32,000 nt of DNA, from contig NQJD01000015.1 of the NCBI GenBank assembly GCA_004284765.1, positions 25,167 to 57,166 on the forward strand, written 5' to 3'. This document shows, piece after piece, positions 2,055-30,253 of this stretch; the stretch's first letter is position 1, and every line of letters begins with the position of its first letter. A program made the translations under genes and the position numbers. Under the pieces are notes generated by a model. The model had not been told where the DNA came from. It saw only the letters and a program-made list of their open reading frames with translations, and ran no database searches. Source of the DNA: Candidatus Electronema aureum (GTDB lineage Bacteria > Desulfobacterota > Desulfobulbia > Desulfobulbales > Desulfobulbaceae).

Positions 2055-2083
2055 TTGACCGCTGCTGCTTTCATCGTTATGAT
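2055..2083 (+). promoter_or_regulatory. candidate sigma70 promoter (TTGACC-17 nt-TATGAT)
   Basis: -35 TTGACC at 2055-2060 (a second TTGACC lies at 2045-2050), a 17-nt spacer, then -10 TATGAT at 2078-2083. It sits directly after the terminator and upstream of the ATG at 2130. Confidence 0.4.
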
Positions 2084-2129
2084 AGCGACATTGGCTTGTT
2101 TGCCGTCCCTTCCCGAACACTTGCAAAAA

Positions 2130-10948: not shown

Positions 10949-13642
10949 ATGGAAAGAACAGTGCATTCTGATCTCAAGCATCTTCGCTGCTGGGTACTGA
11001 CCGCTTTCATATTTTGGTCGATTCTGATCAATGGTTCTCTTTGCCTATTTGTCCGCAACCAGTGGAACAACGTCAAGTTTATCGGCAAAGAAATAGGGCT
11101 GGCTGCCATTCATAAGGACCATATTTACCGGATATGGAATGCCCGACAAGGCGGCGTTTATGTGCAAATCAGTGATAAAACCCCGCCAAATCCTTATTTG
11201 AGCAATCTGTCGAATCGAGATGTCAGCACCACAGACGGAAAAAAGCTCACGATGGTCAACCCGGCTTACATGACCCGCCAGATTCATGAGCTTGAACAGG
11301 AGATGAACGGTGTTTTCACCGGGCATATCACCAGCCTGCGAGTAGTTCGGCCTGAAAATAAGCCTGATGATTGGGAAAATCAGGCATTGCGGCAATTTGA
11401 ACACGGGGCGAAAGAATTTGCTGAACTGACCAATAAGGACGGCAAGCCGTTCATGCGGGTTATGAGTCCAACCATTGTGCAGGAATCTTGCCTGAAATGT
11501 CATGCTGAACAGGGATATAAATTAGGTGATATCCGTGGTGGTATTAGCGTCATCGTCCCGATGGAAGAAACCGTAAACTTGTTTCAAAGGCAGTTCAAAA
11601 CTAGTGCCCTCTATCATCTCTTGATTTATCTGATTGGTGTGACCGGTCAGGTGATTTTTTATTCCCAGAGCAGCAGACTGCGCCGCAAGCGGGCGATGGT
11701 GGAGGAAAAACTCTCAAGTCAAGAACAGCATCTACGCAGTATTGTTGATAACATTTCCAACGGCATTGCGGTTTATGAGGTAGATCAAGAAGGACAGGAC
11801 TTTCAGGTTAAGCGAATCAACCCAGCTGGAATGCGCATCGCTAGGCTGGATGAAGCGACTGACCCAGCAGGCAGAAGACCGACCGAGCTATTTTTCGGCT
11901 TCGCTGAGTCGGGATTACTGGAAGTTTTTCAGCGAGTAGCAAAGAGTGGCAGCCCAGAGCATTGTTCTGTCTCCTCGTGCATTCAAAAAACAACTATCGG
12001 TAACGATAGTAAGGACACATCATTTCCCTGCCTGGAATATTACATCTACAAGTTGCCGACTGGCGAGATCGTCGCGGTGTATGAGGATGTGACCTCGCGG
12101 AAACAGGCCAGGGAATTGCTGATCCGTAAAACTGAGGAATGGGAAAGTACCTTTGACGCGATCCCTGATATCATCACTCTGCAAGATAAAGACATGCGGA
12201 TTATCCGCGCCAACCAAGCCACCTTTGAATTTTTCCGCCTGCCACCAGAAAAGCTGCTCGGTATGACTTGCCACAGCCTGTTCCGAGGTTCGGATCAACC
12301 CTGTGCGGGCTGTCCTGGCCTTCATGCGATCAGCGATCGACAGAAACACTGCGGCGGCATGGAACACAAGGCGATTGGCAAATTTTTCCATGTCTGTGCC
12401 GCGCCAGTGCTCAACCCGGAGGGTGAATTCCTTTATTTTGTCTATATTGCCCACGATGTCACTGACAAAAAAAAGCTAGAGGACGAGCTATTTCAGGCGC
12501 AAAAGATGGAGGCTATCGGCACCTTGGCAGGCGGCATTGCCCACGACTTCAACAACATCCTCGCCGCAATTCTCGGCTACACCGAGCTAGCTCGAATGGA
12601 GCTGCCAGAGGGCAGCAATGCTCGCAACGATCTGGAACAGGTGCTTATCGCGGGGAACCGGGCAACGGAACTGGTCAAGCAGATACTCACCTTCAGCCGC
12701 AAAAGCGAGCACCGCAAAAAACCACTGCGGATTTATTTGCTCGTCAAGGAAGCGGTGAAAATGCTGCGTTCTTCGCTGCCGTCAACCATCGATATTCGTA
12801 CCGAAATCGACGAGCACAGCGGTCTCGTACTGGCTGATCCAACCAGCATCCACCAGATCGTTTTCAATCTCTGCACCAACGCTGCCCAGGCTATTGGCAG
12901 CAAGCAGGGAAAAATGGAAATCATCCTGCGCCAAACAGAGCTGACCGCTTCCCAGAGAGAAGAGCGGCCTTTGCTCCAACTAGGGCTGTTCATCGTTTTG
13001 ACCGTTCGGGACAATGGCTGCGGCATGGACGAAAAAACGATGGCCCGCATCTTTGATCCTTATTTTACTACCAAGGAACAGGGCGCGGGTACTGGCCTAG
13101 GCTTGGCTGTCACGCACGGGGTGGTCGAAGACTGCCAAGGCTTCATCGAGTTGGAAAGCGAGTTGGGTAAAGGAACAACGTTTCATGTTTATCTACCAGT
13201 CCTGCCAGAAGAGAGCAAGAATATGCAGCAGGAGACAGACAGCGTGGCGCAGTTACCTTGCGGCACGGAGCGCATTCTCTTTGTGGATGACGAGCCGTCG
13301 ATTGTCCATATCAGCCGCGCGATTCTGACTACGCTGGGCTATTCGGTTCATGCTGAAACCGAGAGCATGGCTGCCTTGGAAAAATTTCGGCAGAACCCAG
13401 CATTGTACGATTTGCTGGTTACAGACCAAACTATGCCTGGTCTGACCGGCAGCGAACTGGCCAAGGCGGTGCTAGAAATCCGTCCCGACCTGCCGGTGAT
13501 TCTCTGCACTGGCTACACCGCTGCCTTGGCGGAAAAAGAGGCACTAGCCCTAGGGGTGCGCCGCTACGTGATCAAACCGTTGAATTCAACGAAACTGGCC
13601 ACTTTGGTCAGAGAAGTGCTGGATGAGGCGAAGCTGGGCTAA
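10949..13642 (+). CDS. hybrid sensor histidine kinase/response regulator with periplasmic haem-c (DUF3365-like) sensor and PAS domains
   Basis: TM segment, a ~190-aa extracytoplasmic region with CXXCH ('CLKCH') and a second TM segment. These are followed by PAS regions, HisKA ('GGIAHDFNNILAAILGY'), HATPase_c ('DNGCGM', 'GTGLGLA') and a C-terminal REC domain ('ILFVDDE...LLVTDQTMPG'). Confidence 0.9.
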   Translation: MERTVHSDLKHLRCWVLTAFIFWSILINGSLCLFVRNQWNNVKFIGKEIGLAAIHKDHIYRIWNARQGGVYVQISDKTPPNPYLSNLSNRDVSTTDGKKLTMVNPAYMTRQIHELEQEMNGVFTGHITSLRVVRPENKPDDWENQALRQFEHGAKEFAELTNKDGKPFMRVMSPTIVQESCLKCHAEQGYKLGDIRGGISVIVPMEETVNLFQRQFKTSALYHLLIYLIGVTGQVIFYSQSSRLRRKRAMVEEKLSSQEQHLRSIVDNISNGIAVYEVDQEGQDFQVKRINPAGMRIARLDEATDPAGRRPTELFFGFAESGLLEVFQRVAKSGSPEHCSVSSCIQKTTIGNDSKDTSFPCLEYYIYKLPTGEIVAVYEDVTSRKQARELLIRKTEEWESTFDAIPDIITLQDKDMRIIRANQATFEFFRLPPEKLLGMTCHSLFRGSDQPCAGCPGLHAISDRQKHCGGMEHKAIGKFFHVCAAPVLNPEGEFLYFVYIAHDVTDKKKLEDELFQAQKMEAIGTLAGGIAHDFNNILAAILGYTELARMELPEGSNARNDLEQVLIAGNRATELVKQILTFSRKSEHRKKPLRIYLLVKEAVKMLRSSLPSTIDIRTEIDEHSGLVLADPTSIHQIVFNLCTNAAQAIGSKQGKMEIILRQTELTASQREERPLLQLGLFIVLTVRDNGCGMDEKTMARIFDPYFTTKEQGAGTGLGLAVTHGVVEDCQGFIELESELGKGTTFHVYLPVLPEESKNMQQETDSVAQLPCGTERILFVDDEPSIVHISRAILTTLGYSVHAETESMAALEKFRQNPALYDLLVTDQTMPGLTGSELAKAVLEIRPDLPVILCTGYTAALAEKEALALGVRRYVIKPLNSTKLATLVREVLDEAKLG

Positions 13643-15429
13643 TCCGAGGATGGAGCAACAGGCAAGTCGATATGCACGGCGGTGCCACTCCCCAGCAGCG
13701 AATCCGCTTCAATGTAGCCTTCGTGCTGACTGACTATCGAGGCGGCGATAGTTAGCCCCAGTCCCATCCCCTTGGTTTTGCCCCTTGTTTTCCCAGAAAA
13801 ATAGGGATCAAAAATGTTGGGCAAATCGTCCTTGCGAATGCCACGGCCTTGATCGCGGACAGTGATGCGGACATATTCCCCTTCTTTGCGGCCAGCAGCC
13901 TCATGACCGAGCAGGCAGATATTTTCTGCGCTGACCTGCACTCGTCCTCCAGCAGGAGCCATCGCCTCTGTTGCATTACGGAACAACTCGCGCAGTACCT
14001 GCTCAATCTGCCCAGGATCGGCATAAATCGGCAGCAAGTTATCCGACATATCCAGCTCTGGCACAACGTTCCCGCCTTCAAAAAAGGAAAAGCAAGTCGC
14101 CCTAATCAACTCCGCAGGTGCCACAGCTTGCCGCACGGGTGGCGTGAAACTCGAGAACAGCAAAAATTTGTGCGATAGCTCCTTGGCCTCTGTTGCTGAG
14201 GCGGTTGCATCTTGGAGAAAGCCCAGAGCGCGGTGCTCCGGGTGGAGCTTCATCATCGCCAGCTCAAGGTTGCCGGTAATCGCCATCAGCAGGTTGTTGA
14301 AGTCATGAGCGATACCACCAGCCATCATCGATACGGTTTCCATCTTTCGGTTGCGGATTAGCTCCTCTTCCATTTTTTTCCGACGGCTGATATCGATGCA
14401 ATATTCAATCACCCGCGTGACTTGGCCCTGTCGATCTGTCACCGGACAGGTATGAATTTCCATCGTTTGCGGATTACCTGCTGCATCAGTACCGACATGC
14501 TCGACCATGACTGGCCTGCCCTGCTCGCGCACGATGTTGAGCGGGCATTCTAATCCCTGTTCAAAACAAGGCTGGCTGAAACCGTGCATGTATTGATAGC
14601 AGGTTTTCAAGTGATCCCGACCTGCTGCCTGACTACCTGCGGCCCTGTTGGCAGCCAAGATTCGGAACGTGGCGACATCAATGACCGCAAAAGGATGCGG
14701 CAACGAATTGATCACCGTGCTGAGAAAGCGATTCTGCTGGAGGATTTCTGCACTGCGTAGCTCAATCTGCTTCTCTAAGCTGTCACGGTGGAGGCGGATT
14801 TTTTCCTCAGCCCGCCGCCGTTCCTTAATTTCTTTGGTCAGCAGATCGTTGGTGTGGCGGAGTTCAGCGGTTTGCTCACGCACATGCTCTTCCAGCATAT
14901 TCCGCTGCATAACTAAAGCGGACATAGCCTGTTTATGCTCCACCGTTAAATGCCATTTTTCAATCAAGGCTGCTGCTGATTGGCGAATTTCAATCGCCTC
15001 AAAGGGCTTTTTCAGGATCAACAGCTTGTCGGCAGAGAGCAGAGCCGAGCTGATATCCTGCCACGAATAATCAGAATACGCCGTGATCACCACAAACTGA
15101 AGCTGATAATCCTCCTGCTGGAGTCGCTTTATGGTCTTCAAGCCGTCCATACCGGGCTGGAGTCGCATATCGACGTAGGCCAAGGCGTAGGGTTTTCGCT
15201 CTAACCGAGAATGCCGGACCATCTCCACTGCCTCCTCGCCCCGGAAGGCTGAGTCGATCAGCAAATCCGCCTTTTCTTCCGTCGGTGCCTCTTGACCAAC
15301 AATATCAGCGAACAGAGCATCCAATTCGCCTGATTCATTCTGGTGCAGCAGAATTTTTTTGATGTCACTGTGGATGTCTGGATTGTCGTCAACAATCAAA
15401 ATTCGGTCGATCCTGCCGTTTTTTTTCAC
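13639..15429 (-). CDS. response-regulator receiver / PAS / histidine kinase fusion protein
   Basis: The GTG start overlaps the upstream stop (GTGA). It has an N-terminal REC domain ('ILIVDDNPDIH', 'YVDMRLQPGMDG'), a coiled coil, a PAS domain, HisKA ('GGIAHDFNNLLMAITGN') and HATPase_c ('DQGRGI', 'GMGLGL'). Confidence 0.9.
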   Translation of the reverse strand: MKKNGRIDRILIVDDNPDIHSDIKKILLHQNESGELDALFADIVGQEAPTEEKADLLIDSAFRGEEAVEMVRHSRLERKPYALAYVDMRLQPGMDGLKTIKRLQQEDYQLQFVVITAYSDYSWQDISSALLSADKLLILKKPFEAIEIRQSAAALIEKWHLTVEHKQAMSALVMQRNMLEEHVREQTAELRHTNDLLTKEIKERRRAEEKIRLHRDSLEKQIELRSAEILQQNRFLSTVINSLPHPFAVIDVATFRILAANRAAGSQAAGRDHLKTCYQYMHGFSQPCFEQGLECPLNIVREQGRPVMVEHVGTDAAGNPQTMEIHTCPVTDRQGQVTRVIEYCIDISRRKKMEEELIRNRKMETVSMMAGGIAHDFNNLLMAITGNLELAMMKLHPEHRALGFLQDATASATEAKELSHKFLLFSSFTPPVRQAVAPAELIRATCFSFFEGGNVVPELDMSDNLLPIYADPGQIEQVLRELFRNATEAMAPAGGRVQVSAENICLLGHEAAGRKEGEYVRITVRDQGRGIRKDDLPNIFDPYFSGKTRGKTKGMGLGLTIAASIVSQHEGYIEADSLLGSGTAVHIDLPVAPSSD

Positions 15430-17294
15430 GCTCCCCTCCTCCTACCCGCTGTGGTCGGCAGCTCCAGCCTGAAAACCGCCCCTTTGTCTTCGCCCGGACT
15501 TCCCGCCGTCAGCGTACCGCCCATTTCCGTTGCCAGATTAGCCGCGTTGTGCAGACCAAAGCCATGTCCGCCTTTTTTGGCCGTAAAGCCAAAAGCAAAA
15601 ATATGCTCCATGATCTCGCTGCTGATGCCTCTGCCGTTGTCTGCTACTTCTACCATAACGTGTTCATTCTCTGTGTCAACAGGCTGGAGCCGGAGGCTGA
15701 TTTTTCGCTCTGTTTGCTTGAGTCCCTCAAACGCATCAGCGGCATTACTAATCAGATTAACCATAATCTGTAAGATTTTGCGCCGTTCGCCCTGCATGGC
15801 CGGAAGTCGGGCATAATTGCGTTCCACCTGAATCTGCCGCTCAGTGATCTTTTGCTCAAAAATCTCCATGCTTTCCTCAATCACTGAAGCCAGATCAAAT
15901 TGCTCGATCAGCACCTTGCCGCCCGCAGCATCCTGCTGGGTACGGATGATGTCAGCGGCTCGGCGGACATGCCGGAGCTGATGCCCAATTTCCTCTAAGA
16001 GCCGCCAACGCTCTTTAGTCAACTGGGCAGAAAGGCTGGCAAAGTAGAGCGGCAGTTTGCGGCCCTTGGGATCGCTGCCAAAGAAAGCCGCTGGATCCTC
16101 CTTGTGCTGCTCTATCAACTCGACAATCGCAGGCAGGGTGGAGCTGCCGCTTTTCTGTACCATTTCCCCCAACCGTTCTGCCGAAACCGAAATGCTATTC
16201 AGCGTGTTGCCGACATTGTGCAATACCTCAGTCGCCACTTCAGCCTTGCCTGCTAGCCGCGAGGTATCCAAGAGCGTTTTTAAGATATGTGCATGTTCAA
16301 CCGCCAAGGCGCAAACCCCGGACACGTGCAGGGCGGTGTTCATGTACGAGCCGATATGCTGAGGAAAAGCGACCTGCTGCACGAGCACCACAGCCAAGGT
16401 CTTTCCACCTGTACCGATCCGCAAAAGAAAGCCATCACCGCTGGCCAAGAGTTGGTGTTGTCGTTCGCTCTCAAGAAGGAATTGCGTAGCAGCCTGCTGT
16501 TCCTCCGCGTTTAAGTCAGCTAATCGATCCGTGGCAAGGCCGTTTTTCGTCACTGGGAGGCAGCGAATCTGCCGAGGCGCAAAGAGCATGGTAAATAGCT
16601 CGGCAATTCCAGCGAAAGCCTCTGGCTCCGAACTCGCCTTGACCACTAACCCCAGCATGTCGAAGATCATGGCGGTCTGTGCGGCCTGTTGACGAGCCTG
16701 CTCTTTCTGTCGCTCTAGTTCCTCCTGTCGATATTCTGCTGCTATTTTGGTTAATAGTAAGCCGTGATATTCCAAGCCTATAGGCAGAATTTCGGCTGGG
16801 AGCTGGAAAAGGTCGGCCAGCTCGGCGAGATGCAGACTCGCTTGCTCATCCCTGCCCGTGTCTAACAGAACCAGCTTGTTGACATCGTGCTCAAACAGCT
16901 CTGCCGCTTGGGTTCGATCAGCTAACTGCTCTTGCCAACGAGCCAACCAGCCTGGCAAAAGCAGTCCAGCTCCGCTCTGACGAAGATGTCTGACCAAGGT
17001 TGGGCTACAGAGCAGATGTACGCACTGCTCGGCACGCCGGATTCGACTGCCAGGAATCTTCAAATCCTTGGCAAGACAGCGGCAACCAATGATCTCAACG
17101 GCATCTGCCCCACTCTCTTTCACCAAAGCGATCAACTCTTCTCTGTCAGCCAGTCGGGAAGCACAATGAGCGGCAAAAGCTCTCACTTCAAGCCCAGTTA
17201 TCCCCTGAAGCTGCGCGGCCGCTTGGGTATCAGGCAGGAGCTGCTTGCAAACCAAAAAGCAGAGAGAAAGCGGTCTCACGAAGAGCGGCCCCAT
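15426..17294 (-). CDS. cytoplasmic sensor histidine kinase with Cys-rich N-terminal DUF1638-like domain
   Basis: H-box-like 'EVLHNVGNTLNS' and HATPase_c ('NLISNAADA', 'DNGRGI', 'GHGFGLH'). ATG 17294 is preferred over the TTG at 17345 and overlaps the upstream gene by 19 nt. The N-terminal ~190 aa carry 'EIIGCRCL' and 'AEQCVHLLCSP...LLLPGWLARW'. Confidence 0.8.
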   Translation of the reverse strand: MGPLFVRPLSLCFLVCKQLLPDTQAAAQLQGITGLEVRAFAAHCASRLADREELIALVKESGADAVEIIGCRCLAKDLKIPGSRIRRAEQCVHLLCSPTLVRHLRQSGAGLLLPGWLARWQEQLADRTQAAELFEHDVNKLVLLDTGRDEQASLHLAELADLFQLPAEILPIGLEYHGLLLTKIAAEYRQEELERQKEQARQQAAQTAMIFDMLGLVVKASSEPEAFAGIAELFTMLFAPRQIRCLPVTKNGLATDRLADLNAEEQQAATQFLLESERQHQLLASGDGFLLRIGTGGKTLAVVLVQQVAFPQHIGSYMNTALHVSGVCALAVEHAHILKTLLDTSRLAGKAEVATEVLHNVGNTLNSISVSAERLGEMVQKSGSSTLPAIVELIEQHKEDPAAFFGSDPKGRKLPLYFASLSAQLTKERWRLLEEIGHQLRHVRRAADIIRTQQDAAGGKVLIEQFDLASVIEESMEIFEQKITERQIQVERNYARLPAMQGERRKILQIMVNLISNAADAFEGLKQTERKISLRLQPVDTENEHVMVEVADNGRGISSEIMEHIFAFGFTAKKGGHGFGLHNAANLATEMGGTLTAGSPGEDKGAVFRLELPTTAGRRRGA

Positions 17295-18310
17295 TGCTGC
17301 ACTGCCGCAGAGATCGCCAGCAGAATCTCGTCGCTGACCTGCCAAGGAATTTCACCGTGGTTATCGGTAAGAATGAAGCCACCGCCCGCTGCGGCTGCGG
17401 CCAGAGCCTCCTTTACTTTTGCCTCGGCTTGCGTCGGTGTCCAACGACGCATTTCAATTCCATTCAGATTGCCCGCCACCGTGATTTTTCCTTTGCACGC
17501 TGCTTTAACTGCGGCCAGATCATCTAATGCGCTTACACCGGCGGCGACCGCACCGACTTTGGCTAGTTCCTCCACCATTGCCAGACAGCGGCCTGAACCC
17601 AGATGAATGCAGGCCGGACCGTTGAAGTAGGAGAGACACTGCCGGGCCATCTCCAGTCCGGTGCGGCGGTACATTTCAGGTGGAATCATGTCGGGCGAGG
17701 CCAGCGGATCAAAATAGCAGACCGTTGTGGCTCCGGCCTGAAACTGAGCATTCGCCCAAGCCACGCAAAAGGCTTGGTTCACCGCCATCAGTCGGGCGAA
17801 CAACTCCGGTTGTTCGTACAGCAGCTCAATATAGGCGGCAAAGCCCATCTGCATGACTGGCAGAGAAAAGGGCGAAATAACCACACCGATAATCGGCACG
17901 GTGTTGCCAGCCCGCTCTTTGAGGCCACTGATCACATCCAGCATTCGGCAGAGACAGGGCGTTTCGTCCACCACTGGAACTTGCAAGGCAAGGATATCCT
18001 CTGGCTTTTTGAGCACTGGTGCGCCGCTGTTGGGCGGGCCGTCCTCATACCATACGATTTCGCCGCCAAAGGCTTCGGCTTCTGCTGCGCCGTACAGCAG
18101 AGGATAGAAGCAGTCGTGGTGGTATTTGGCCCGCAGGCGGCATTGACCTTCAATAACATATTTTGCCTGAGAAAAATACTCGCGGATACTTAGACCTAGT
18201 TCTTTAGCCCCGTGCATAGTCAGCAGGAGAAAAAACGGGACGCGGTCTGGCTCTCGGTGACTGAGCGTGGTCAGCACCCGTTCCATCGAGGTCATTTCTG
18301 CGTTGCTCAT
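17276..18310 (-). CDS. uroporphyrinogen decarboxylase (URO-D) family protein, MtaA/CmuA-like methyltransferase
   Basis: The ATG at 18310 follows 'ggagga' and overlaps the upstream stop (ATGA). 'MERVLTTLSHREPDRVPFF' and the overall TIM-barrel-sized 344-aa protein match the URO-D/MT2 family, which is usually paired with corrinoid proteins. Confidence 0.75.
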   Translation of the reverse strand: MSNAEMTSMERVLTTLSHREPDRVPFFLLLTMHGAKELGLSIREYFSQAKYVIEGQCRLRAKYHHDCFYPLLYGAAEAEAFGGEIVWYEDGPPNSGAPVLKKPEDILALQVPVVDETPCLCRMLDVISGLKERAGNTVPIIGVVISPFSLPVMQMGFAAYIELLYEQPELFARLMAVNQAFCVAWANAQFQAGATTVCYFDPLASPDMIPPEMYRRTGLEMARQCLSYFNGPACIHLGSGRCLAMVEELAKVGAVAAGVSALDDLAAVKAACKGKITVAGNLNGIEMRRWTPTQAEAKVKEALAAAAAGGGFILTDNHGEIPWQVSDEILLAISAAVQQWGRSS

Positions 18311-18951
18311 TGGGTAAGTTCCTCCATGCAGCGGGCCACTGCTCGTACTGCTTCGGCGGCGTTGTTTCCGCTTGCATCTGCCCCCACTTCCCGCCATAAT
18401 TCTGGGTCAAAGCGAAACGGTGCCCCGCCGACAATGATTTTCGTTGCAGAACCAGCAGCGACGAGAAGTATTTTCACCTGTTTGATTTGAAGCGCGGAGT
18501 GAAGCATGAGGGTGGAGATTAAGACAATCTTCACTTCATCGCGGCAGATTCGTTCGGCCAGCTCTGGGGCAGTCAGCCTGCCGTAGTCGCAGAGTTCATA
18601 GCCACTGGCCCGCAACGCAGCGCAGACGATCGTTTTGCCGAGGGCATGATAATCATCGAGCAAGGCAATACCAATTTTTGGGCGAAGAATCCGCTCTGGG
18701 CTGGAGGGCGGTAGGAGCTTATCGACCAGCTCCTCGCAAATGCGGCTGCTCATATACACCTGCGCTAAGGCCGCGCTGCCTTGCTCCCAGCGTCTGCCGA
18801 TTTCCTCCAGAGCAGGCACCACTAAGCGTTCCACCGCTTTGAGCGGCGCATCTTGCGCCCGTGCCTCGGCCAGCATCTGTTCTGCTCCGATGCGGTCAAG
18901 TACCAACAGTTTATCTGCAAAAATTTCGCTACTGCGGTCTGCTGCGGTCAT
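18307..18951 (-). CDS. cobalamin (B12)-binding corrinoid protein
   Basis: It has an N-terminal helical cap plus a Rossmann-like domain with the canonical D-x-H-x-x-G motif ('LLDDYHALGKTI') and 'IIVGGAPF'. ATG 18951 follows an 'aggaa' SD. The longer track ORF (to 19044) runs through the predicted promoter. Confidence 0.85.
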   Translation of the reverse strand: MTAADRSSEIFADKLLVLDRIGAEQMLAEARAQDAPLKAVERLVVPALEEIGRRWEQGSAALAQVYMSSRICEELVDKLLPPSSPERILRPKIGIALLDDYHALGKTIVCAALRASGYELCDYGRLTAPELAERICRDEVKIVLISTLMLHSALQIKQVKILLVAAGSATKIIVGGAPFRFDPELWREVGADASGNNAAEAVRAVARCMEELTQ

Positions 18952-19043
18952 GGAAAATTCCTGAAGAAAAGATACCGTAGATTGCCTGAAAAGGCACGGG
19001 GTTATTTTACTGCCCAGAACAGGCTTGTTAAAATAATCAGCCA

Positions 19044-19073
19044 ATTTTACTGATCCTTTTTCGCTGCTGTCAA
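19044..19073 (-). promoter_or_regulatory. candidate sigma70 promoter of the corrinoid/kinase operon (TTGACA-18-TAAAAT)
   Basis: On the minus strand, -35 TTGACA is at 19073-19068 and -10 TAAAAT at 19049-19044, with an 18-nt spacer, about 90 nt upstream of ATG 18951. Confidence 0.45.
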
Positions 19074-19210: not shown

Positions 19211-22200
19211 ATGAGTTTCAAGAGCACCTTCCTCGCTGCCCAAAGCAGCGTCCGGCGCAGTGCCCACACCGCTAAAAAACATGTTTTTTGCTCCCTGTTG
19301 ACTGGAATGCTGCTTCTGGGAGTATTCTATTTTCTTTCCGTTCTTTGGATGTATCAGCAGCAGGATGCGGTGCGGCAGAGTGAATGGCGTGAGATGATTA
19401 ACGACCTCTATGCCCGCCGGATCGCGGAAAACGGACAAATGTTGCAAACACTCCTGCTGACTTTGAGCGAGAACCAGGAGCTGTTACGGCAGTTTCTCGC
19501 CAAAGACCGAGTGACCTTACTGCGCTCGGCTCTGATTATCAACCGTCATCTCAGTCGCCACAGCCAGATCACCCATTTTTATTTTCATAACCGGGATAAA
19601 ACTTGCTTTCTGCGGGTGCATCAGCCTGACCGTCACGGCGACCGCATCAATCGTGTTACCTTAGAGCAAGCGGCAGCTACAGGCAATGCGGTTTCTGGTT
19701 TAGAAATTGGTCCGCTCGGTACTTTGACTCTCCGGGCGGTCATGCCTTGGCACGACCAAAAAGGGCAGTTAATCGGCTACATCGAGCTGGGTCGGGAGTT
19801 AGCCACTTTGCTGCCAATTTTTGCCGAACTCAAGCCCATTGACGGCTACCAGCTCACCGTGGGCAAGGGATACCTTAACCAGCAGGGCTGGGAACAGGGC
19901 ATGAAAATGCTGGGCCATGTCGCAGACTGGTCAGCGTTCCCAGATCGGGTAATCATGGCTGACCAACTGCCGCACGGCATAAACTGCTCCAGTAGCAGCA
20001 GTCACAAGCACAGCTGGCCGCAGGAGTTGCTGCGCAAAATCATACCCGACTCGATGTTCTGCATGAAGCACACGGTGCCAGTGATCGACGCGGGCGGGCA
20101 GCAGGTCGGCAGCCTGCTTTTTGTCCGTGACGAGTTAGACAAGCTGCTGGCTGCACGCCGAATCAACACCTTTTTTCTGCTCTTTTTGCTGGGTACTACT
20201 GCCGGGCTACTGCTCTTATATTACATTTTTCTCCACCGAATGGAGAACCGCCTCGCCGAGTCAGATGAGGTGCTGGAAGAGAGCCGCAGGCAGCTGGCTT
20301 TAGCCTTGGAGGTGGCGGGGTTGGGCATGTGGGATTGGCATCCTCGCCGCAATGTGCTGCACACCAACGACATCTTTTTCACCATGCTCGGCTGGCCACA
20401 TGATGCTTTTCAGCGCACCAATAAGCTCTGGCAGGAGCTGATGCACCCAGAGGATTTTATCGCCACCGGTGCAGCAGTGCAGCCTTTTCTGGAGCGCGAT
20501 GACGGCTGTTGTAGCGCAGAATATCGCCTGCGCACAGCGGACGGCCAGTGGCGATGGATTCGCGCTCTGGGTCGGGTGATCGCCCGCGATGCTGAAGGTC
20601 GGGCAGTGCGCTTTATGGGTGTGCATATCGACATCACCCGCAGCAAGGAAACCGAGGCCGAGCTGCTGGAAAACTTCCATCGCCTGACCACCTTCATGGA
20701 AACCCTGCCTGACGCGGTGTTTCTCAAAGACGGCAAAGGCCACTGGTTACTGACGAACGGGGTAGCTCGGCAACTTTTTCATGTGGAAAGGATTGCGTGG
20801 CAGGGTAAAACTGATACAGAAATCGGGCAGGAACAGCCAGTCTTGGCCAATGTGCTCGCTGCTTGTACGGCCAGCGACGAACGGGCTTGGCAAAAGCGGG
20901 CCATGCTGATCGAAGACGAGACAGCCACCGATCTAACCGGCCACCCACGCCTATTTGAAGTCCGCAAGATGCCGCTCTTTTTTGCCGACGGCAGCCGCAA
21001 AGCACTCGTCATTATCGGTAGAGACATCACTGAGCAGCGACAGATTGAGCAGCAACTCATTGAGGCTCGGCGGGAGGCTGAGGCAGCCAGTCAGGCCAAG
21101 TCAGATTTTTTGGCCAACATGAGTCATGAAATCCGCACCCCGATGAATGCGGTGATTGGCATGTCTCAGTTAGCCTTAGCTACTGACCTTTCGCCTGTTC
21201 AGCAGAATTATTTAGAAAAAATAAGCAGTTCTGCCGAGCTATTGCTGGGCATTCTCAACGATATTCTTGATTTTTCCAAGATTGAAGCAGGTAAGCTGGA
21301 GATTGAGCAAATCAACTTCAGTCTGCACTCGGTGTTAGAGAGTTTGCACAGTTTGCTCGGCTTCAAAGCGGCAGAGCAAGGTTTAGAGCTGACTGTCAAC
21401 AAGGCAGCAGAGGTGCCAGATAACCTTCGTGGCGACCCGCTGCGTCTTGGCCAAATCCTGATTAATCTCGGTAACAATGCGATTAAGTTCACCCAGCAGG
21501 GCAGAGTCACTATTCGGGTTGATCTCATCGAGCGGGCAGGACGCAGGGCGGTGTTGCGTTTCTCGGTCAGCGACACTGGTATCGGTATCACCCAAGAACA
21601 GCAGCGGAATTTATTTCAGCTTTTCAGTCAAGCAGATAACTCAATCACCCGGAAGTACGGCGGTACCGGTCTTGGTTTGTCGATCAGCAAAAAATTAGTT
21701 GAGATGATGGGTGGTTCGATCCACGCAGAAAGCGTGTACGGGCAGGGTTCGGTTTTTACCTTCACCTTACCGCTTGAAATCAGTGAGGAAGAAAGGCCAC
21801 GTTCTGCGCCGACCCAGCTGTCATCTGATTTCGGACGACTACGCGGGGCAAGAATTTTGTTGGCAGAAGATAATCCGCTGAATCAAGAGCTGACCTTGAT
21901 TTTGCTGCGGCGGAGAGGTATAGAGGTGACATTGGCTAACAACGGTGCTGAGGCACTGGAAGCTCTGAGCCGAGAAACCTTTGACTGTGTGCTGATGGAT
22001 TTACAGATGCCGGTCATGGACGGCTGCACTGCCTGTCGGGAGCTGCGCAAGCAGCCGCGCTACAAAGACCTACCAGTCATCGCGTTGACTGCCAATGTCA
22101 TGACCGGCGACCGCGAAAAAAGCAAATTAGCTGGCATGAACGGCCACATCGGTAAGCCTTTCCGTGAGGAAGAACTGCTGGCTACCTTGTGCCGTCTGCT

Positions 22201-22606
22201 GCCGCCAAGTCGTTCGTCTGCTTTCTCTGAGCAGTCGTCAGCACCCGTCGCCGCTCCCGTCGATTTTACTGCTTTAGTCGGCATCGATGCGGAAAAAGGT
22301 TTGGCTAACACCATGCACGACCCGGATTTCTACCGCAGAATCCTGCTGCTCTTCCGGCAAGATCAAGCCGATTTTGTCCAGAAATTTAAAACGGCCCAAC
22401 AGACTGGCGATGTCAGCGGTGCAGCTCGATTAGCCCATACTCTGAAAAGTGTTGCTGCCACTATCGGTGCGGAAGCTCTACAAGAGGTCGCTTCTCAGTT
22501 GGAAAACACCTGTTGCCAAGGTGGAAACACCGAAGACTTGCTTCAGCAGGCAACGGCAGAGTTAGAACAGGTGCTGCGGGGAATAGACCGTTTCACTTTG
22601 GCGTAG
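19211..22606 (+). CDS. hybrid sensor histidine kinase (Cache-like periplasmic domain, 2 PAS, HisKA, HATPase_c, REC, Hpt)
   Basis: SD 'aggaga'. TM segment, an extracytoplasmic ~280 aa ('THFYFHNRDKTCFLRVHQPDRHGD') and a second TM segment. These are followed by PAS regions, 'SHEIRTPMNAVIGMSQ', 'GGTGLGLSISK', REC ('ILLAEDNPLNQ', 'VLMDLQMPVMDG') and Hpt ('AHTLKSVAATIGA'). Confidence 0.9.
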   Translation: MSFKSTFLAAQSSVRRSAHTAKKHVFCSLLTGMLLLGVFYFLSVLWMYQQQDAVRQSEWREMINDLYARRIAENGQMLQTLLLTLSENQELLRQFLAKDRVTLLRSALIINRHLSRHSQITHFYFHNRDKTCFLRVHQPDRHGDRINRVTLEQAAATGNAVSGLEIGPLGTLTLRAVMPWHDQKGQLIGYIELGRELATLLPIFAELKPIDGYQLTVGKGYLNQQGWEQGMKMLGHVADWSAFPDRVIMADQLPHGINCSSSSSHKHSWPQELLRKIIPDSMFCMKHTVPVIDAGGQQVGSLLFVRDELDKLLAARRINTFFLLFLLGTTAGLLLLYYIFLHRMENRLAESDEVLEESRRQLALALEVAGLGMWDWHPRRNVLHTNDIFFTMLGWPHDAFQRTNKLWQELMHPEDFIATGAAVQPFLERDDGCCSAEYRLRTADGQWRWIRALGRVIARDAEGRAVRFMGVHIDITRSKETEAELLENFHRLTTFMETLPDAVFLKDGKGHWLLTNGVARQLFHVERIAWQGKTDTEIGQEQPVLANVLAACTASDERAWQKRAMLIEDETATDLTGHPRLFEVRKMPLFFADGSRKALVIIGRDITEQRQIEQQLIEARREAEAASQAKSDFLANMSHEIRTPMNAVIGMSQLALATDLSPVQQNYLEKISSSAELLLGILNDILDFSKIEAGKLEIEQINFSLHSVLESLHSLLGFKAAEQGLELTVNKAAEVPDNLRGDPLRLGQILINLGNNAIKFTQQGRVTIRVDLIERAGRRAVLRFSVSDTGIGITQEQQRNLFQLFSQADNSITRKYGGTGLGLSISKKLVEMMGGSIHAESVYGQGSVFTFTLPLEISEEERPRSAPTQLSSDFGRLRGARILLAEDNPLNQELTLILLRRRGIEVTLANNGAEALEALSRETFDCVLMDLQMPVMDGCTACRELRKQPRYKDLPVIALTANVMTGDREKSKLAGMNGHIGKPFREEELLATLCRLLPPSRSSAFSEQSSAPVAAPVDFTALVGIDAEKGLANTMHDPDFYRRILLLFRQDQADFVQKFKTAQQTGDVSGAARLAHTLKSVAATIGAEALQEVASQLENTCCQGGNTEDLLQQATAELEQVLRGIDRFTLA

Positions 22607-22634: not shown

Positions 22635-23822
22635 ATGTCAGAAGACAACTACACAGAAGTCACCAACGAATCTTGGTTCAGCCGAATTGGTGGGGCCTTT
22701 AAAGGCATTATCTTTGGCTTTGTCCTGTTCATCGCTGCGTTCCCGCTCCTGTTGTGGAATGAAGGTCGGGCGGTAAAGACTTACAAAACCCTGAAGGAAG
22801 GCAGCGGCACAGTGATCTCTGTGCCTGCGGACAAGGTTACTCCAGCCAACGAGGGAAAGTTAGTGCATCTGAGCGGCAAAGCTGTCACCGAGGCCACGCT
22901 GACCGATCCAATTTTCGCCGTGTCTGCTAATGCCCTCAAACTGCGAAGGGAAGTGGAGATGTATCAGTGGCAGGAAAGCTCGAAGAGTGAGACCAAGAAG
23001 AAGCTCGGCGGCGGCACAGAGACAGTGACGGAATATTCGTACAGCAAGGTCTGGTCAGGCAACACCGTCAGCTCCTCCAGTTTCAAAAAGTCAGGGCATG
23101 AGAATCCTAACTCCATGCCCTATCACTCCGAAGAGCTGGTAGCGGACAACGTCACGCTGGGAGCTTTTACCCTGCCGTCCTCCTTGGTCAGCAAGATCAG
23201 CGGTTCGCAAGCCTTGCCGATCAGCAGCGAGCTTTCCTTGCCTCAAGAGCTGGAAGGGAAGGCGAAGCGGCACGACGGCGGATTCTATCTCGGTGCTGAT
23301 CCTTCCTCGCCCCAAGTTGGTGATGTGCGGATTACGTTTGAGACGGTGCCGCCGACTGATGTGAGCTTGGCTGCCCAGCAAGTTGGCAGCAGCTTTGCTC
23401 CTTACCAAGCCTCAACGGGCGACACTATCGAACTCTTGCAAGCAGGTACCCACACGGCGGCAGCGATGTTCCAGAAAGCCCAGAGCGACAACAAGCTGCT
23501 GACTTGGATTCTCCGAGCTGTAGGCTTTTTCCTGATGTTTGCTGGATTAGGTATGATCTTCAAGGTGCTGTCTGTGCTGGCCGATGTTCTGCCGTTCTTA
23601 GGTAACGTGATCGGTGCGGGTACAGGCATCATCTCTTTCTTGATCGCGGCGGTGCTATCGCTGATCACCATTGCATTGGCTTGGGTTGTTTACCGGCCTC
23701 TTTTTGGCATCATCCTGCTCGCCGTTGCAGTTGGGCTGATTGTCTTAGTTAAAGGCAAGCTTGGCACAGCAAAGAAGCAAACAACAGCAGCAATGCCTCC
23801 GCCTCCACCGCCCCGCTCGTAA
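22635..23822 (+). CDS. TMEM43/DUF1625-family membrane protein
   Basis: N-terminal TM segment followed by 'WNEGR', then 'LRREVEMYQWQE' and a C-terminal cluster of TM helices. This layout is typical of bacterial TMEM43 (LUMA) homologues. The C-terminal tail is 'MPPPPPPRS'. Confidence 0.7.
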   Translation: MSEDNYTEVTNESWFSRIGGAFKGIIFGFVLFIAAFPLLLWNEGRAVKTYKTLKEGSGTVISVPADKVTPANEGKLVHLSGKAVTEATLTDPIFAVSANALKLRREVEMYQWQESSKSETKKKLGGGTETVTEYSYSKVWSGNTVSSSSFKKSGHENPNSMPYHSEELVADNVTLGAFTLPSSLVSKISGSQALPISSELSLPQELEGKAKRHDGGFYLGADPSSPQVGDVRITFETVPPTDVSLAAQQVGSSFAPYQASTGDTIELLQAGTHTAAAMFQKAQSDNKLLTWILRAVGFFLMFAGLGMIFKVLSVLADVLPFLGNVIGAGTGIISFLIAAVLSLITIALAWVVYRPLFGIILLAVAVGLIVLVKGKLGTAKKQTTAAMPPPPPPRS

Positions 23823-23874
23823 ACACATGATCCATGCTAGCATGGAGTTTTCCTCCGCTGTAGAGCTGAAAATA

Positions 23875-23903
23875 TCGTCATCTTGCTCCATGCCTGCTAT
23901 AAT
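23875..23903 (+). promoter_or_regulatory. candidate sigma70 promoter upstream of the beta-helix gene (TCGTCA-17-TATAAT)
   Basis: Perfect -10 TATAAT at 23898-23903 and a weak -35 at 23875-23880 with a 17-nt spacer. Confidence 0.3.
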
Positions 23904-24104
23904 CATGCGGCACGGAGCAGCTTGCACAGGGCAGGCCAGTTCATGTTCAACAAGGACGAATCAGCGGGCTTGCAAGAGCGATATGATGGATGGCACATTC
24001 ATAGACGTGGTGATCAACAAGCTGCAATGGCTGCTTGATCATCCTGAAGTGACATGGAGCGGCAGCGGCAAGCAGAACATATTCATCTTTGCACGGAGGA
24101 CAGA

Positions 24105-25646
24105 TTGAAAACACCACTGAAGGGACTACTGTTCTTGGCTGCGCTGCTGATGGCTGTCGGCACAGCGCAGGCGGCAACCATCACCGTAGATATAGGCGGT
24201 GCCTGCACGTTAGCTGATGCCATCACTGCAGCCAATACCGACACAGCCACCGGCGGCTGCGTGGCAGGCGCAGGAGATGACACCATAACCTTGGAGACAG
24301 ATATCACTCTTGCCGCCGCCCTGCCGACAATCACGAGCACGGTCATCATTGAGGGCGGCTACTACTTCATCAGCGGCAATAATAATTCCAGCGTAGGCAC
24401 TGTGCTGAGAGTAGCCAACAGCGGCAACCTAATCCTGAATCAAGTCATTGTTACTCGCGGCTATAACAGCACATCAGGTCTTGGCGGAGGAATTTACACT
24501 AGCGGCGGCACAGTTACGCTGAACAACTCCACAGTCAGCGAAAACTCTATCTCCTCCTCTTCTTCCTCTGCTGGCCTTTCCTACAGTGAGGGCGGGGGGA
24601 TTTACAGCTATAGCGGCACAGTCACACTGAACAACTCCACAGTCAGTGGGAACTCTGTCTCCTCTTCTCCCCCCTCCTCCGACTTTATCTGCCACAGTGA
24701 GGGCGGGGGGATTTACAGCTATAGCGGCACAGTCACGCTGAACAACTCCACAGTCAGTGGGAACTCTGTCTCCTCTTCTGTCTCCTCCTCTTCCTCCTTT
24801 CTCTACTACAGTAAGGGCGGGGGAATTTACAGTAGCGGTACAGTCACGCTGAACAACTCCACAGTCAGCGGGAACTCTGTCTCCTCTCCCGTCTCCTCTT
24901 CCTCCTTCTTTATCTACTACAGTGGCGGCGGGGGAATTTACAGTGACGGTACAATCACGCTGAACGACTCTACAGTCAGTGGAAACTCTGCTTCCTCTTC
25001 TGTTTCATCTTCCTCTTTCATTGAATACTACGGTGGTGGCGGAGGGATTTACAGTGGCGGCACAATGATGATGAATCACTCTACAGTTAGCGTGAACTAT
25101 ATTTCCATGTCCTTCTCCTCATTATCCGGTGTTGTGTCATTTAGCGGTGGGGGAATTTACAGTGGCGGCGGCGCAGCCATATTGCGCAGTTCCCTTGTCA
25201 GCGGCAACACAGCCATGCTCCACGGCCCAGATTTCGCAGCTTCCAATAGCAATGAAGTCCAGGGCACAGTGACAGCAGATGGCCATAATCTCTTCGGCCA
25301 CAGCGGTGAGACGAGCGCACAGGCATTCTCATCCTACAACTTCACGCCCGGCAGCAGCGACATTACCGCCACCAGCGACGGCACCAAGCCTACTGCGCTG
25401 GCCGCTATCCTCTCCCCTCTGGCCGACAACGGCGGTGCTACCAAGACCCACGCACTGCCTGCGGGCAGCCCGGCGATTGATCTGGACACGACATGCAGCA
25501 CTGGCCTGACCATAGATCAGCGCGGCTATCCGCGTCCGGTTGGTTCAGGCTGCGATGCGGGTTCTTTTGAATACGGGAGCGTTCGTACGGTCACCGGCAT
25601 AAACATGGCACCCATCTACAAGCTGCTGCTGTTCAAGCGGCGATAG
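24105..25646 (+). CDS. secreted parallel beta-helix repeat protein with C-terminal choice-of-anchor-Q-like domain
   Basis: The TTG at 24105 follows 'ggagga' and gives a textbook signal peptide, 'KTPLKGLLFLAALLMAVGTAQA|A' (the track ORF starts at ATG 24054). It has about 7 repeats of 'GGGIYS..GTVTLNNSTVSGNS'. The C-terminus reads 'LSPLADNGGATKTHALPAGSPAID...DQRGYPRP...CDAGSFEY'. Confidence 0.75.
   Translation: MKTPLKGLLFLAALLMAVGTAQAATITVDIGGACTLADAITAANTDTATGGCVAGAGDDTITLETDITLAAALPTITSTVIIEGGYYFISGNNNSSVGTVLRVANSGNLILNQVIVTRGYNSTSGLGGGIYTSGGTVTLNNSTVSENSISSSSSSAGLSYSEGGGIYSYSGTVTLNNSTVSGNSVSSSPPSSDFICHSEGGGIYSYSGTVTLNNSTVSGNSVSSSVSSSSSFLYYSKGGGIYSSGTVTLNNSTVSGNSVSSPVSSSSFFIYYSGGGGIYSDGTITLNDSTVSGNSASSSVSSSSFIEYYGGGGGIYSGGTMMMNHSTVSVNYISMSFSSLSGVVSFSGGGIYSGGGAAILRSSLVSGNTAMLHGPDFAASNSNEVQGTVTADGHNLFGHSGETSAQAFSSYNFTPGSSDITATSDGTKPTALAAILSPLADNGGATKTHALPAGSPAIDLDTTCSTGLTIDQRGYPRPVGSGCDAGSFEYGSVRTVTGINMAPIYKLLLFKRR
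24477..25212 (+). repeat. in-frame tandem coding repeats (~111-117 nt period, ~7 units)
   Basis: Units recur with 'ggcggggg(g/a)atttacag...acagtcac.ctgaacaactccacagtcag.gg.aactct'. Segments 24585-24668 and 24696-24779 differ at 1 of 84 positions. Confidence 0.9.
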
Positions 25647-29292: not shown

Positions 29293-30237
29293 ATGATTAT
29301 CTGGCTGCATGACCGTCTATTTGCGAACGATAGGCAAGGAGATTTAGCTCTACTGACACTGCTTCGCAATGCTGCGGCGCGTGGCCACACTCTGATTATC
29401 TCCAATAGTCCAAACTCTCCATTCCACAGGCGCAGCTCTTCATATTTTGAACAATGGATCAGCACCTTTCCTGTTAGACTTGAAGAAGAACTCAAGTTGA
29501 TTCGGCAGCAACTGATGATAGTGTCAGCCAACTCGACAGTGCGCGGAACGGGACGGCTGCTTGTTTCTGCCAGAAAAATCCCTGATGGAATCACAGGCTG
29601 CCAGATTTCTTTAGAGGAAGCGGTGCGGGCGGCAGCGCAGCCTCTTTATGTGCTTGTGGAAAATCAGATCAATGATGCCGCATTTCTCCGTCGTGTGATG
29701 CCGCCGGTTTGGAGCAAGAAGCTGCTGCAATGGGAAAGTGAGGGAAAGTTGCGCTATGAACATAGCGGAGGTATTGATACCATGAGAAATATTGTTATGT
29801 TTTATACACAAGACGACAAGGCAAGGCTGGCTTTTGGTCTGCCTGCGCAGATATGGCAACTCGGTCATTTTATCATTTATGATCATGACGGGAAGAATGC
29901 TGAAAATCCCAGTCAGTCTTCAATGGATTTAAAAAAGATTTGTGTGCAGAACCGCAGCCACCGCCTACTTCGGCGATGTCAGGAAAATTATCTGCCAAAA
30001 GAGGTAATGCTAGCTATAATCGAGAAACGCATCACCGATCCTAATGACCGGATACAACGCAGAATTAAAATTGACCAGCATTGTTCTGGTGGAGATCAAC
30101 GCCATTTCACCAAACTTGACAAGCTGTTCAAAAACGGATTCACCGAGGAAATAGCGTGGGTTGAAGACTGGTTCAAAAATGACGGCTCTTGGCCTGAGAT
30201 GACCGAGTTGGCTGAAAAAATCGCAGCAGCGATGTAA
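29293..30237 (+). CDS. Toprim-like (DUF4435/OLD-type) protein with uncharacterised N-terminal domain
   Basis: It starts immediately after the ATPase stop (TGAATG). Ordered motifs are 'LYVLVENQINDAAFL' (Toprim Glu), 'GGIDTMRN', 'IIYDHDG' (DxD) and 'RRCQENYLPKE' (the ENYL motif seen in DUF4435/OLD C-termini). Confidence 0.5.
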   Translation: MIIWLHDRLFANDRQGDLALLTLLRNAAARGHTLIISNSPNSPFHRRSSSYFEQWISTFPVRLEEELKLIRQQLMIVSANSTVRGTGRLLVSARKIPDGITGCQISLEEAVRAAAQPLYVLVENQINDAAFLRRVMPPVWSKKLLQWESEGKLRYEHSGGIDTMRNIVMFYTQDDKARLAFGLPAQIWQLGHFIIYDHDGKNAENPSQSSMDLKKICVQNRSHRLLRRCQENYLPKEVMLAIIEKRITDPNDRIQRRIKIDQHCSGGDQRHFTKLDKLFKNGFTEEIAWVEDWFKNDGSWPEMTELAEKIAAAM

Positions 30238-30253
30238 TTGAAAGAGGTGTATC

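Follow-up and report, generated by a model that had tools for sequence, protein, structure and literature searches.

In the MtaC/MtaA, MtbC/MtbA and MtsA/B systems of methanogens and in bacterial O-demethylases, a corrinoid protein of ~210 amino acids (aa), built from a cap and a Rossmann domain with a DxHxxG motif, stands beside a partner with the uroporphyrinogen decarboxylase (URO-D) fold. A pair of the same kind is encoded by the first two genes of a four-gene operon of Candidatus Electronema aureum, in which the other two genes encode histidine kinases (kinase 1 and kinase 2). Here, we analyzed this operon in a stretch of 32,000 nucleotides (nt) (assembly GCA_004284765.1, contig NQJD01000015.1, positions 25,167 to 57,166 of the forward strand). 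The whole stretch is referred to as the window, and coordinates are window positions. A reading of the letters alone, referred to as the original prediction, had proposed that the pair is the input module of a phosphorelay rather than a metabolic enzyme pair. MtaC/MtaA-type systems give the best hidden Markov model (HMM) and PDB matches of the pair. However, the scores are far under the cut-offs, the zinc cysteines are replaced, no MT1, second methyltransferase or activase is present, and pairs of the window type are nearly always followed by a DUF1638/GAF signaling protein (80 of 81 loci).

Separate proteins that carry a cofactor and act on a neighboring kinase are known. In the H-NOX/HahK and NosP/NahK systems, a stand-alone cofactor-binding sensor protein is encoded in one operon with a kinase or a diguanylate cyclase. 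As proposed here, the separate cofactor protein modulates the adjacent kinase or cyclase and the outputs are interchangeable across species. However, H-NOX and NosP bind heme, whereas the proposed module would use cobalamin, has an obligatory third, enzyme-like component, and has a kinase with its own docking or reader domains. MsmS and RdmS of Methanosarcina acetivorans use heme or thiols as sensor. Like kinase 1, these two proteins are GAF-containing soluble kinases encoded beside corrinoid methyltransferase genes (PMC11784639), but they have no H-box and their neighbors are catabolic fused corrinoid methyltransferases. Unlike kinase 1, they are archaeal, lack DUF1638, and are not translationally coupled to a corrinoid/URO-D pair. 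Cobalamin domains also serve signaling in CarH/LitR, in AerR/PpaA, and in fusions to kinases or GGDEF domains (PDB 8j2y). The window corrinoid protein would do likewise, but it is a separate polypeptide of the methyltransferase type, without the W-x9-EH signature, with a URO-D-like partner, and with output through a DUF1638-GAF region.

Two published studies bear on DUF1638. In Phaeobacter inhibens, the DUF1638 gene PGA1_c13340 adjoins the gene for the B12-binding subunit of a split methionine synthase and is required for methionine synthesis, and across Alphaproteobacteria the presence of DUF1638 tracks that of a RamA-like reductive activase; the authors did not propose a mechanism (PMC5764234). 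The DUF1638 (SPO2162) and RamA proteins of Ruegeria pomeroyi rise together on methylated osmolytes (PMC12478193). These data suggest that DUF1638 deals with the state of protein-bound corrinoid. The stand-alone DUF1638 protein of the split methionine synthase resembles that of the window in being encoded beside a B12-binding protein. However, stand-alone DUF1638 proteins are short and metabolic and co-vary with the RamA-like activase, whereas the window DUF1638 is the N-terminal domain of a signaling protein and belongs to a distinct subfamily with a four-cysteine (Cys4) pattern; the stand-alone relatives examined lack C44. Full-text literature searches returned no account of a corrinoid/URO-D/DUF1638 signaling module. 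On DUF1638 they gave only the two papers above, and no paper was found that links cobalamin to kinases in cable bacteria; a photoglobin/B12 paper does not cover the module. The component families are known, as are systems of an accessory sensor plus a kinase, and the sensing principle would be new if a read-out of the cobalt state holds.

Conservation, outputs and layout of the gene triad

A survey of genomes for this gene arrangement, one of the checks proposed with the original prediction, was run on one genome per GTDB species with the alignment of the URO-D-like protein as query, and at least 561 relatives were confirmed. We then scanned the loci of the best 80 of these relatives with HMMs built from the window family. 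The best 80 relatives show 57–96% identity and span more than 12 phyla, with hosts from Desulfobacterota, Chloroflexota, Nitrospirota, Gamma- and Alphaproteobacteria, Leptospirales, Verrucomicrobiota, Planctomycetota, Acidobacteriota, Actinomycetes, Bacillota, Riflebacteria, Bacteroidales and SAR324. The corrinoid gene was found to adjoin the URO-D-like gene in all 80 loci. The third gene encoded DUF1638 and/or a module-specific GAF domain in 80 of the 81 loci in which the downstream region was present. Both domains lay in one open reading frame (ORF) in 61 loci and were split over adjacent ORFs in 3; the GAF domain occurred alone in 12 and DUF1638 alone in 4, three of which end at a contig end. 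The order and the overlapping junctions of the corrinoid, URO-D-like and DUF1638-GAF genes (the triad) recur in all 80 best loci, far beyond chance. Nine contexts from Electrothrix, Chloroflexota, Thermodesulfovibrio, Leptospirales, Acidobacteriota and unbinned metagenomes were inspected individually. All had a B12-binding gene followed by a URO-D gene and a third gene, with mostly overlapping junctions and otherwise unrelated flanks. Some Electrothrix genomes have the order URO-D, corrinoid, an optional second URO-D, and DUF1638 kinase, and still keep the gene set. The hosts are largely anaerobes or gradient dwellers, including cable bacteria, Thiomargarita, Parabeggiatoa, magnetotactic bacteria, Methylobacter and Desulfonema, and the module is kept in all cable-bacterium genomes covered here.

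The N-terminus of the third gene product is constant and its output is not. Pfam searches of 62 third-gene products identified HATPase_c in 34, HisKA in 19, GGDEF in 9, REC in 7, HisKA_2 in 2 and HWE_HK in 1, together with various PAS domains; the Pfam family DUF1638 was matched by 47 of the 62. We also searched 1.84 billion representative proteins with the DUF1638 profile and obtained 1437 matches at E≤1e-3, of which 725 reached E≤1e-30. DUF1638 was always N-terminal in the matched representatives, which were 188–1403 aa long (median 622). In a sample of 64 representatives, all of which matched the DUF1638 family, the output and accessory domains were HATPase_c (45), HisKA (35), REC (17), GGDEF (6), HisKA_2 (4), HWE (3), HD-GYP (2), HisKA_3 (1), Hpt (1) and STAS (1). 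A DUF1638-GAF N-terminus that stays constant while many signaling outputs alternate behind it is characteristic of sensory input modules and would not be expected in a metabolic operon. We also considered that HATPase_c might be an ATP-driven activase rather than part of a kinase, and rejected this because GGDEF, HD-GYP and STAS take its place in orthologues. In public annotation, the third genes appear as "ATP-binding protein", "histidine kinase" or "DUF1638 domain-containing protein".

Neither the window nor the nine annotated contexts were found to encode MT1, a pterin-binding methyltransferase or a RamA-type activase. MT1 and activase were likewise absent from the 25 most frequent of 86 matched upstream-neighbor families and from the downstream genes. 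The upstream neighbors of the triad were mostly signaling genes or unrelated housekeeping genes, and no genes for B12 transport or synthesis were found nearby, either in the window or among the upstream neighbors. The original prediction had named clusters that always include MT1 and activases and lack kinases as the outcome that would speak against it. The opposite was found: MT1 and activase are absent and a signaling protein is nearly always present.

The operon consists of four ORFs on the minus strand (Table 1). The original prediction had described these genes as translationally coupled, and ORFs and sequence agree with it at each junction: an ATGA overlap between the corrinoid and URO-D-like genes (18307–18310), a 19-nt overlap between the URO-D-like and kinase 1 genes (17276–17294), and a GTGA overlap between the two kinase genes (15426–15429). 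The 19-nt overlap holds if kinase 1 starts at the ATG at 17294, and this start is backed by homologues beginning MGPLFVRPLSLCF. The corrinoid gene ATG at 18951 is preceded by AGGAA. The reported TTGACA-18-TAAAAT site is present and is the best promoter-like match of the region. Five such sites were found in the region against 3.8 expected from shuffled sequence, and because this is no excess, a promoter role is only plausible. An Rfam scan of the window, including the leader, matched no family and no cobalamin riboswitch.

Table 1 Features of the corrinoid/URO-D/kinase operon in the window.
Feature	Position	Strand	Remarks
Sigma-70-like promoter candidate, TTGACA-18 nt-TAAAAT	19044..19073	-	11/12 consensus matches; followed by ~90 nt 5' leader
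Corrinoid (cobalamin-binding) protein gene, 214 aa	18307..18951	-	Pfam PF02607 (B12-binding_2) and PF02310 (B12-binding)
URO-D/MtaA-family protein gene, 344 aa	17276..18310	-	PF01208
Kinase 1 gene, 622 aa, soluble: DUF1638, long helix, GAF-like domain, helix, DHp (H359), HATPase_c	15426..17294	-	
DUF1638 alpha/beta domain, kinase 1 aa 10-172	16779..17267	-	model pLDDT (predicted local distance difference test) 90-92
Module-specific GAF-fold domain, kinase 1 ~aa 200-335	16290..16697	-	Foldseek match to KdpD GAF 4y2f
Kinase 1 transmitter: DHp helix with H359 (EVLHNVGN) and HATPase_c (aa 504-615)	15450..16262	-	
Kinase 2 gene, 596 aa, soluble: REC, coiled coil, PAS_4, HisKA-like DHp, HATPase_c	13639..15429	-	

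Conserved sites of the three proteins

The corrinoid protein is composed of a four-helix cap and a Rossmann B12 domain (Pfam B12-binding_2 and B12-binding, E 7e-16) and carries the His-on DxHxxG...SxL...GG signature. The DxHxxG motif described in the original prediction reads D100-Y-H102-A-L-G105, and D100, H102, G105, S146, L148, G175 and G176 were identical in 80 of 80 orthologues. Its closest solved structures are methyltransferase corrinoid proteins (7xcn, 4jgi, 3ezx), and among curated models MtbC scored 62 bits against 31 bits for CarH. The model for methyltransferase cognate corrinoid proteins (TIGR02370, MtaC/MtbC/MttC type) gave 61.5 bits and did not reach its cut-off of 215.3, which places the protein, by score, in a separate subfamily. 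Weaker PDB matches include CarH and cobalamin-binding GGDEF structures (5c8a, 8j2y). A photoreceptor of the CarH/LitR type was rejected, as the CarH model score lies far below the cut-off of 400 and the 214-aa protein stands alone, with no fusion to a DNA-binding or output domain. The W-x9-E-H cap signature of CarH is absent, and the position reads W55-x9-V65-Y66.

The second protein is URO-D-like, as predicted (PF01208, E 2.9e-47, aa 7–339), and a database protein of Candidatus Electronema aureum matches it with 100% identity, but it fits none of the curated enzyme models at their cut-offs. The MtaA/CmuA model TIGR01463 was the best NCBIfam match (105.8 bits, cut-off 235.4); the MtaA equivalog model gave 85.6 bits (cut-off 400) and the hemE model TIGR01464 gave 39 bits (cut-off 302.95). 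The N-terminus reads EPDRVPFFLLLTMHGA, without the R-Q-A-G-R substrate motif of HemE, and its EPDRVP is of the methyltransferase (MtaA-like) type rather than HemE-like. The family profile matches UroD structures as well as MtaA, and by this measure the family appears roughly equidistant from the two. We therefore rejected a bona fide HemE, given its score and the missing substrate motif, and also a bona fide MtaA/MtbA, given the curated scores, the replacement of both zinc cysteines, and the absence of MT1 or activase alongside. Public annotation nevertheless labels these genes "uroporphyrinogen decarboxylase family protein" or "methylcobamide--CoM methyltransferase MtbA".

The zinc site was compared with that of MtaA by alignment, as had been proposed for scoring the H-x-C...C ligands. 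The reported ACIHLGSGRC was found in the zinc-motif region; in the alignment to MtaA (4ay7), IHLGSG stands opposite LHI-CG and TDNHGEIP opposite APGCGIAP. The zinc histidine of MtaA is retained as His236 in 85 of 87 URO-D-like sequences, while both cysteines are replaced family-wide, the first by Ala/Gly-Ser and the second by His318 (85 of 87). His318 sits in a D-N-H-G-E-I-P motif that resembles the G-H-G motif of UroD. H236, E/D263, D316, H318, E320, D66, C67 and C182 were each kept in at least 85 of 87 sequences. In total, 95 of 344 positions were ≥95% conserved across the 87 sequences, and identity across phyla is 57–65%, which makes the URO-D-like protein, by sequence, the most constrained part of the module. 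The original suspicion about the zinc site was thus borne out, but its conclusion that catalytic competence is uncertain has to be amended: the His236/Glu-Asp263/His318/Glu320 constellation points to a different, strictly conserved site rather than to a decayed pseudo-enzyme.

Some Electrothrix genomes encode two URO-D-like paralogues, among them Electrothrix communis (locus L006, 4916–5971 and 6949–7995) and the genomes of loci L017 and L019. H318 is missing from the paralogue within the triad, which also has ATAATL in place of the ASGRCL of other sequences. The upstream copy is intact and is nearer to the window protein (65% vs 61%).

The original prediction had correctly identified the third and fourth genes as histidine kinase genes and had noted the N-terminal REC domain of one of them (Pfam HATPase_c in both, REC in kinase 2). 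It had not named the N-terminal DUF1638 and GAF-fold domains of kinase 1 (Pfam; AlphaFold/Foldseek). The N-terminus matches DUF1638 (PF07796) with 30.3 bits at a gathering cut-off of 27, and the protein has no membrane segment. An AlphaFold model of residues 1–365 (mean pLDDT 90) places DUF1638 (aa 10–172), a 44-residue helix, the GAF-fold domain and a long helix into DHp in this order, the stacked, helix-linked arrangement typical of modular sensor kinases. The best Foldseek match of the GAF-fold domain was the KdpD GAF domain 4y2f (E 1e-4, TM score 0.71); the module-specific motifs are A-x-AM-x-x-D-L and LFxMLFAP. In the transmitter, HATPase_c scored 72.9 bits with readable N, G1, F and G2 boxes, and H359 in EVLHNVGN was nearly invariant among orthologues.

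DUF1638 was also modeled alone (pLDDT 92). A Foldseek comparison of this model with the PDB gave no significant match (best E 2.7e-3, TM score ≤0.42), and a profile-sequence search of the PDB found no relative; in the model, the fold is best described as "Rossmann-like alpha/beta". Four cysteines, C16, C44, C73 and C91, are each located just past one of four consecutive beta-strands, and they are kept in 56–59 of 60 sequences (93–98%), as are W116 and W120. In NuoB and in hydrogenase small subunits, Fe-S clusters are bound by cysteines located where the strands of a flavodoxin-like sheet end, and by analogy a metal or Fe-S site is plausible. A further cysteine, C328 (VCALAI; window ~16311–16313), lies in the exit helix of the GAF domain and is kept in 50 of 60 kinase 1 orthologues; it is reminiscent of the cysteine through which the GAF domain of MsmS binds its cofactor.

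A proposed cobalamin sensor and its alternatives

It is very probable that the corrinoid, URO-D-like and DUF1638/GAF genes form a signaling input module. The original inference of an input module gained from the recurrence of the triad with interchangeable outputs and without metabolic partners, and the DUF1638-GAF region of kinase 1 adds the physical link. With the gene coupling, domain architecture, conservation, variable outputs and absence of metabolic partners shown above, we consider a dedicated cytoplasmic cobalamin sensor, rather than a metabolic pair, to be the overall best explanation, with a probability of roughly 55%. The corrinoid protein would be the cofactor-bearing receptor, with cobalamin bound base-off/His-on, as its fully conserved motifs suggest. 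The URO-D-like protein would dock on it and set or reset the upper cobalt ligand, with methyl transfer at the non-thiolate His/Glu/His site. The state of the cobalt (methyl-Co(III), Co(II) or Co(I)) would then mirror the balance of methyl transfer against intracellular oxidants or redox poise, which is our preferred cue. The DUF1638-GAF region, possibly through the Cys4 metal or Fe-S site, would bind the corrinoid protein in a state-dependent manner, and the signal would run through the two long helices of kinase 1 to the DHp/CA transmitter. Judging from gene adjacency, kinase 1 may phosphorylate the N-terminal REC domain of kinase 2, gating a second kinase that would act on a further regulator. 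In other bacteria, this input would control GGDEF, HD-GYP or different types of kinase.

Because none of the four proteins is membrane-bound, the cue must be intracellular or membrane-permeant. A read-out of the cobalt redox or methylation state with an oxidant or redox cue is favored because the URO-D-like enzyme does not diversify across habitats, because the hosts are mainly anaerobes and gradient organisms, and because DUF1638 is tied to corrinoid reactivation; we put this part forward tentatively, at somewhat less than even odds. Several points weigh against the proposed sensor. A Co(I)-based cycle sits uneasily with the lack of a reductive activase gene nearby, and the methyl transfer ascribed to the URO-D-like protein is a proposal for an enzyme without the canonical zinc site. 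The DHp region of kinase 1 gives no match to the Pfam HisKA models, and the operon has no DNA-binding response regulator. DUF1638 cannot be the sole reader, or the only coupling element, because 12 loci have the GAF-like domain without it. The model infers cobalamin binding and methyl transfer, as it does the protein contacts and the phosphotransfer.

The same components could serve a chemosensor, in which the URO-D-like enzyme moves a methyl group between a specific methylated or methyl-accepting metabolite and the corrinoid protein and the kinase reads methylated against unmethylated cobalt, reporting the substrate by its turnover. In methanogens and acetogens, enzymes of the URO-D family act as corrinoid methyltransferases. 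MtaA/CmuA is the best NCBIfam match (105.8 bits), the N-terminus has the MtaA-like EPDRVP, and the top scores of the corrinoid protein are those with corrinoid proteins of methyltransferases. However, ligand-specific chemosensors normally diversify, whereas the URO-D-like protein is near-invariant over more than 12 phyla and very different habitats; with the thiolate-activating zinc site absent and no activase to keep Co(I) available, this explanation is unlikely. A light sensor, in which photolysis of methyl- or adenosylcobalamin alters the binding of the corrinoid protein to DUF1638-GAF and the URO-D-like protein re-alkylates the cofactor for dark recovery, is less likely still. The CarH model score (31 bits, cut-off 400) is well under those of the methyltransferase corrinoid models, the cap signature is replaced (W55...V65-Y66), and known B12 photoreceptors work without a methyltransferase-like partner, although B12-binding domains are established photoreceptors (CarH, AerR) and CarH 5c8a and the GGDEF structure 8j2y are among the weaker PDB matches. 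Some hosts come from illuminated sediment surfaces, but many come from groundwater, deep sediment and anaerobic reactors (Thermodesulfovibrio, Syntrophobacterales, Anaerolineae, Riflebacteria).

The two proteins might also be an ordinary methyl-transfer pair that shares an operon with its own regulatory two-component system and has no mechanistic coupling to it. In Methanosarcina, the kinases MsmS and RdmS ("methyltransferase associated sensor kinase") do adjoin corrinoid methyltransferase genes (PMC11784639). This arrangement is very unlikely here: MT1, pterin methyltransferase and activase are missing from the window and the nine contexts and from the top 25 of 86 upstream families, the DUF1638/GAF region co-occurs in 80 of 81 loci regardless of the output domain, and the operon has no DNA-binding regulator. 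Moreover, many output domains are GGDEF or HD-GYP, and such domains do not control transcription of a neighboring operon. Finally, the kinase might report apo- against holo-corrinoid protein as a cobalamin-availability sensor or chaperone that tunes B12 uptake or use. The fully conserved cobalamin-binding motifs would fit, and the lack of a cobalamin riboswitch in the leader leaves room for sensing at the protein level. However, the URO-D-like protein, although the most conserved component, would then have no function, and no B12 transport or synthesis genes lie nearby, which makes it the least probable of all.

For the proposed cobalamin sensor, the most far-reaching formulation is a widespread, light-independent B12 signaling, in which a non-thiolate URO-D enzyme fixes the cobalt state and a Cys4 (possibly Fe-S) DUF1638 with a specialized GAF domain reads it, controlling kinases, c-di-GMP (cyclic di-GMP) enzymes and other outputs; this possibility falls a little short of an even chance. 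To our knowledge, cobalamin in regulation is known only through riboswitches and photoreceptors, and an enzyme-assisted, protein-based cobalamin sensor would, if true, put the cofactor to a new use. In that case, DUF1638 would serve as a general "corrinoid-state reader", and its genetic requirement in the reactivation of split methionine synthase would be accounted for. The module would give the first functional handle on DUF1638, and also a handle on a URO-D clade now labeled "uroporphyrinogen decarboxylase" or "MtbA" in hundreds of genomes. It is also found in giant sulfur bacteria, magnetotactic bacteria, methanotrophs and many anaerobes. Cable bacteria, giant sulfur bacteria and other such hosts position themselves in redox gradients, and we know of no sensors for this positioning. 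Versions with GGDEF output, such as the DUF1638-GAF-GGDEF orthologues of loci L060 and L080, offer a simple enzymatic read-out, and Desulfonema magnum 4be13 (locus at NZ_CP061800.1, 7,499,816–7,510,841) and Ca. Methylobacter oryzae KRF1 are cultured hosts that allow genetics.

Kinase 2 and neighboring genes

The REC domain of kinase 2 (aa 9–151) has the DD pair, the D in VDM, and the T and K all present. Its HATPase_c domain scored 81.7 bits with N, G1, F and G2 boxes and an AHDFNN H-box, and HisKA scored 20.7 bits, below the cut-off of 26.9. A counterpart of kinase 2 also follows the module in Electrothrix. Of 39 genes directly 3' of the triad in other genomes, 20 encoded REC and 14 HATPase_c; this enrichment in receiver domains matches kinase 2.

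Two hybrid kinase genes flank the operon on the plus strand. The first (10949–13642) encodes a Tll0287-like (heme-type) sensor, PAS, HisKA, HATPase_c and REC and is convergent with kinase 2; the two ends overlap by 4 bp (13639–13642), with no space for terminators. This kinase may be functionally linked to the module, because it also adjoins the module in Electrothrix communis (locus L006, 11750–14020). The second (19211–22606, 1131 aa) encodes dCache_3, two PAS domains, HisKA, HATPase_c, REC and Hpt. It is divergent from the operon, shares with it an intergenic region of ~260 bp, and is not kept as a neighbor in Electrothrix.

Further genes of the same families were observed beside the triad in other genomes. 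In Hyphomicrobiales (Rhodomicrobiaceae; loci L063, 2–4259, and L050, 103–4249), a second, distant set lies just 5' of the triad and comprises an MtaA/CmuA-like gene, a stand-alone 246-aa DUF1638 without an equivalent of C44, and a PAS-HisKA-HATPase-REC kinase. It is a further association of URO-D, DUF1638 and kinase genes. In Desulfatiglandales/Desulfobacteraceae (loci L032, 7834–9321, and L059, 8733–10082), a single gene encodes both an MtaA/CmuA-like protein (148 bits) and a thioredoxin-like domain with a (seleno)protein motif. The fusion gene is located 1.8–2.7 kb downstream of the triad and in L032 is followed by an ORF opening with a P-loop GTPase motif.

Elsewhere on the plus strand of the window, the gene of a bacterial member of the TMEM43 family (E 1e-86) precedes an ORF of 530 aa for which neither Pfam nor PADLOC gave a match (22635–25646). 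An overlapping gene pair at 2055–5110 encodes a 545-aa protein with DUF2868 and a 473-aa GTPase with DUF3482 (MMR_HSR1). Three consecutive plus-strand genes at 28048–31867 match the PADLOC candidate defense system PDC-M55: A at E 5e-30 (also NsnB, 6e-36), B at 7e-12, and C at 3e-71 with a GmrSD_N/DUF262 domain. These genes are located in a stretch of low GC content (0.40–0.47, against ~0.53 elsewhere in the window).

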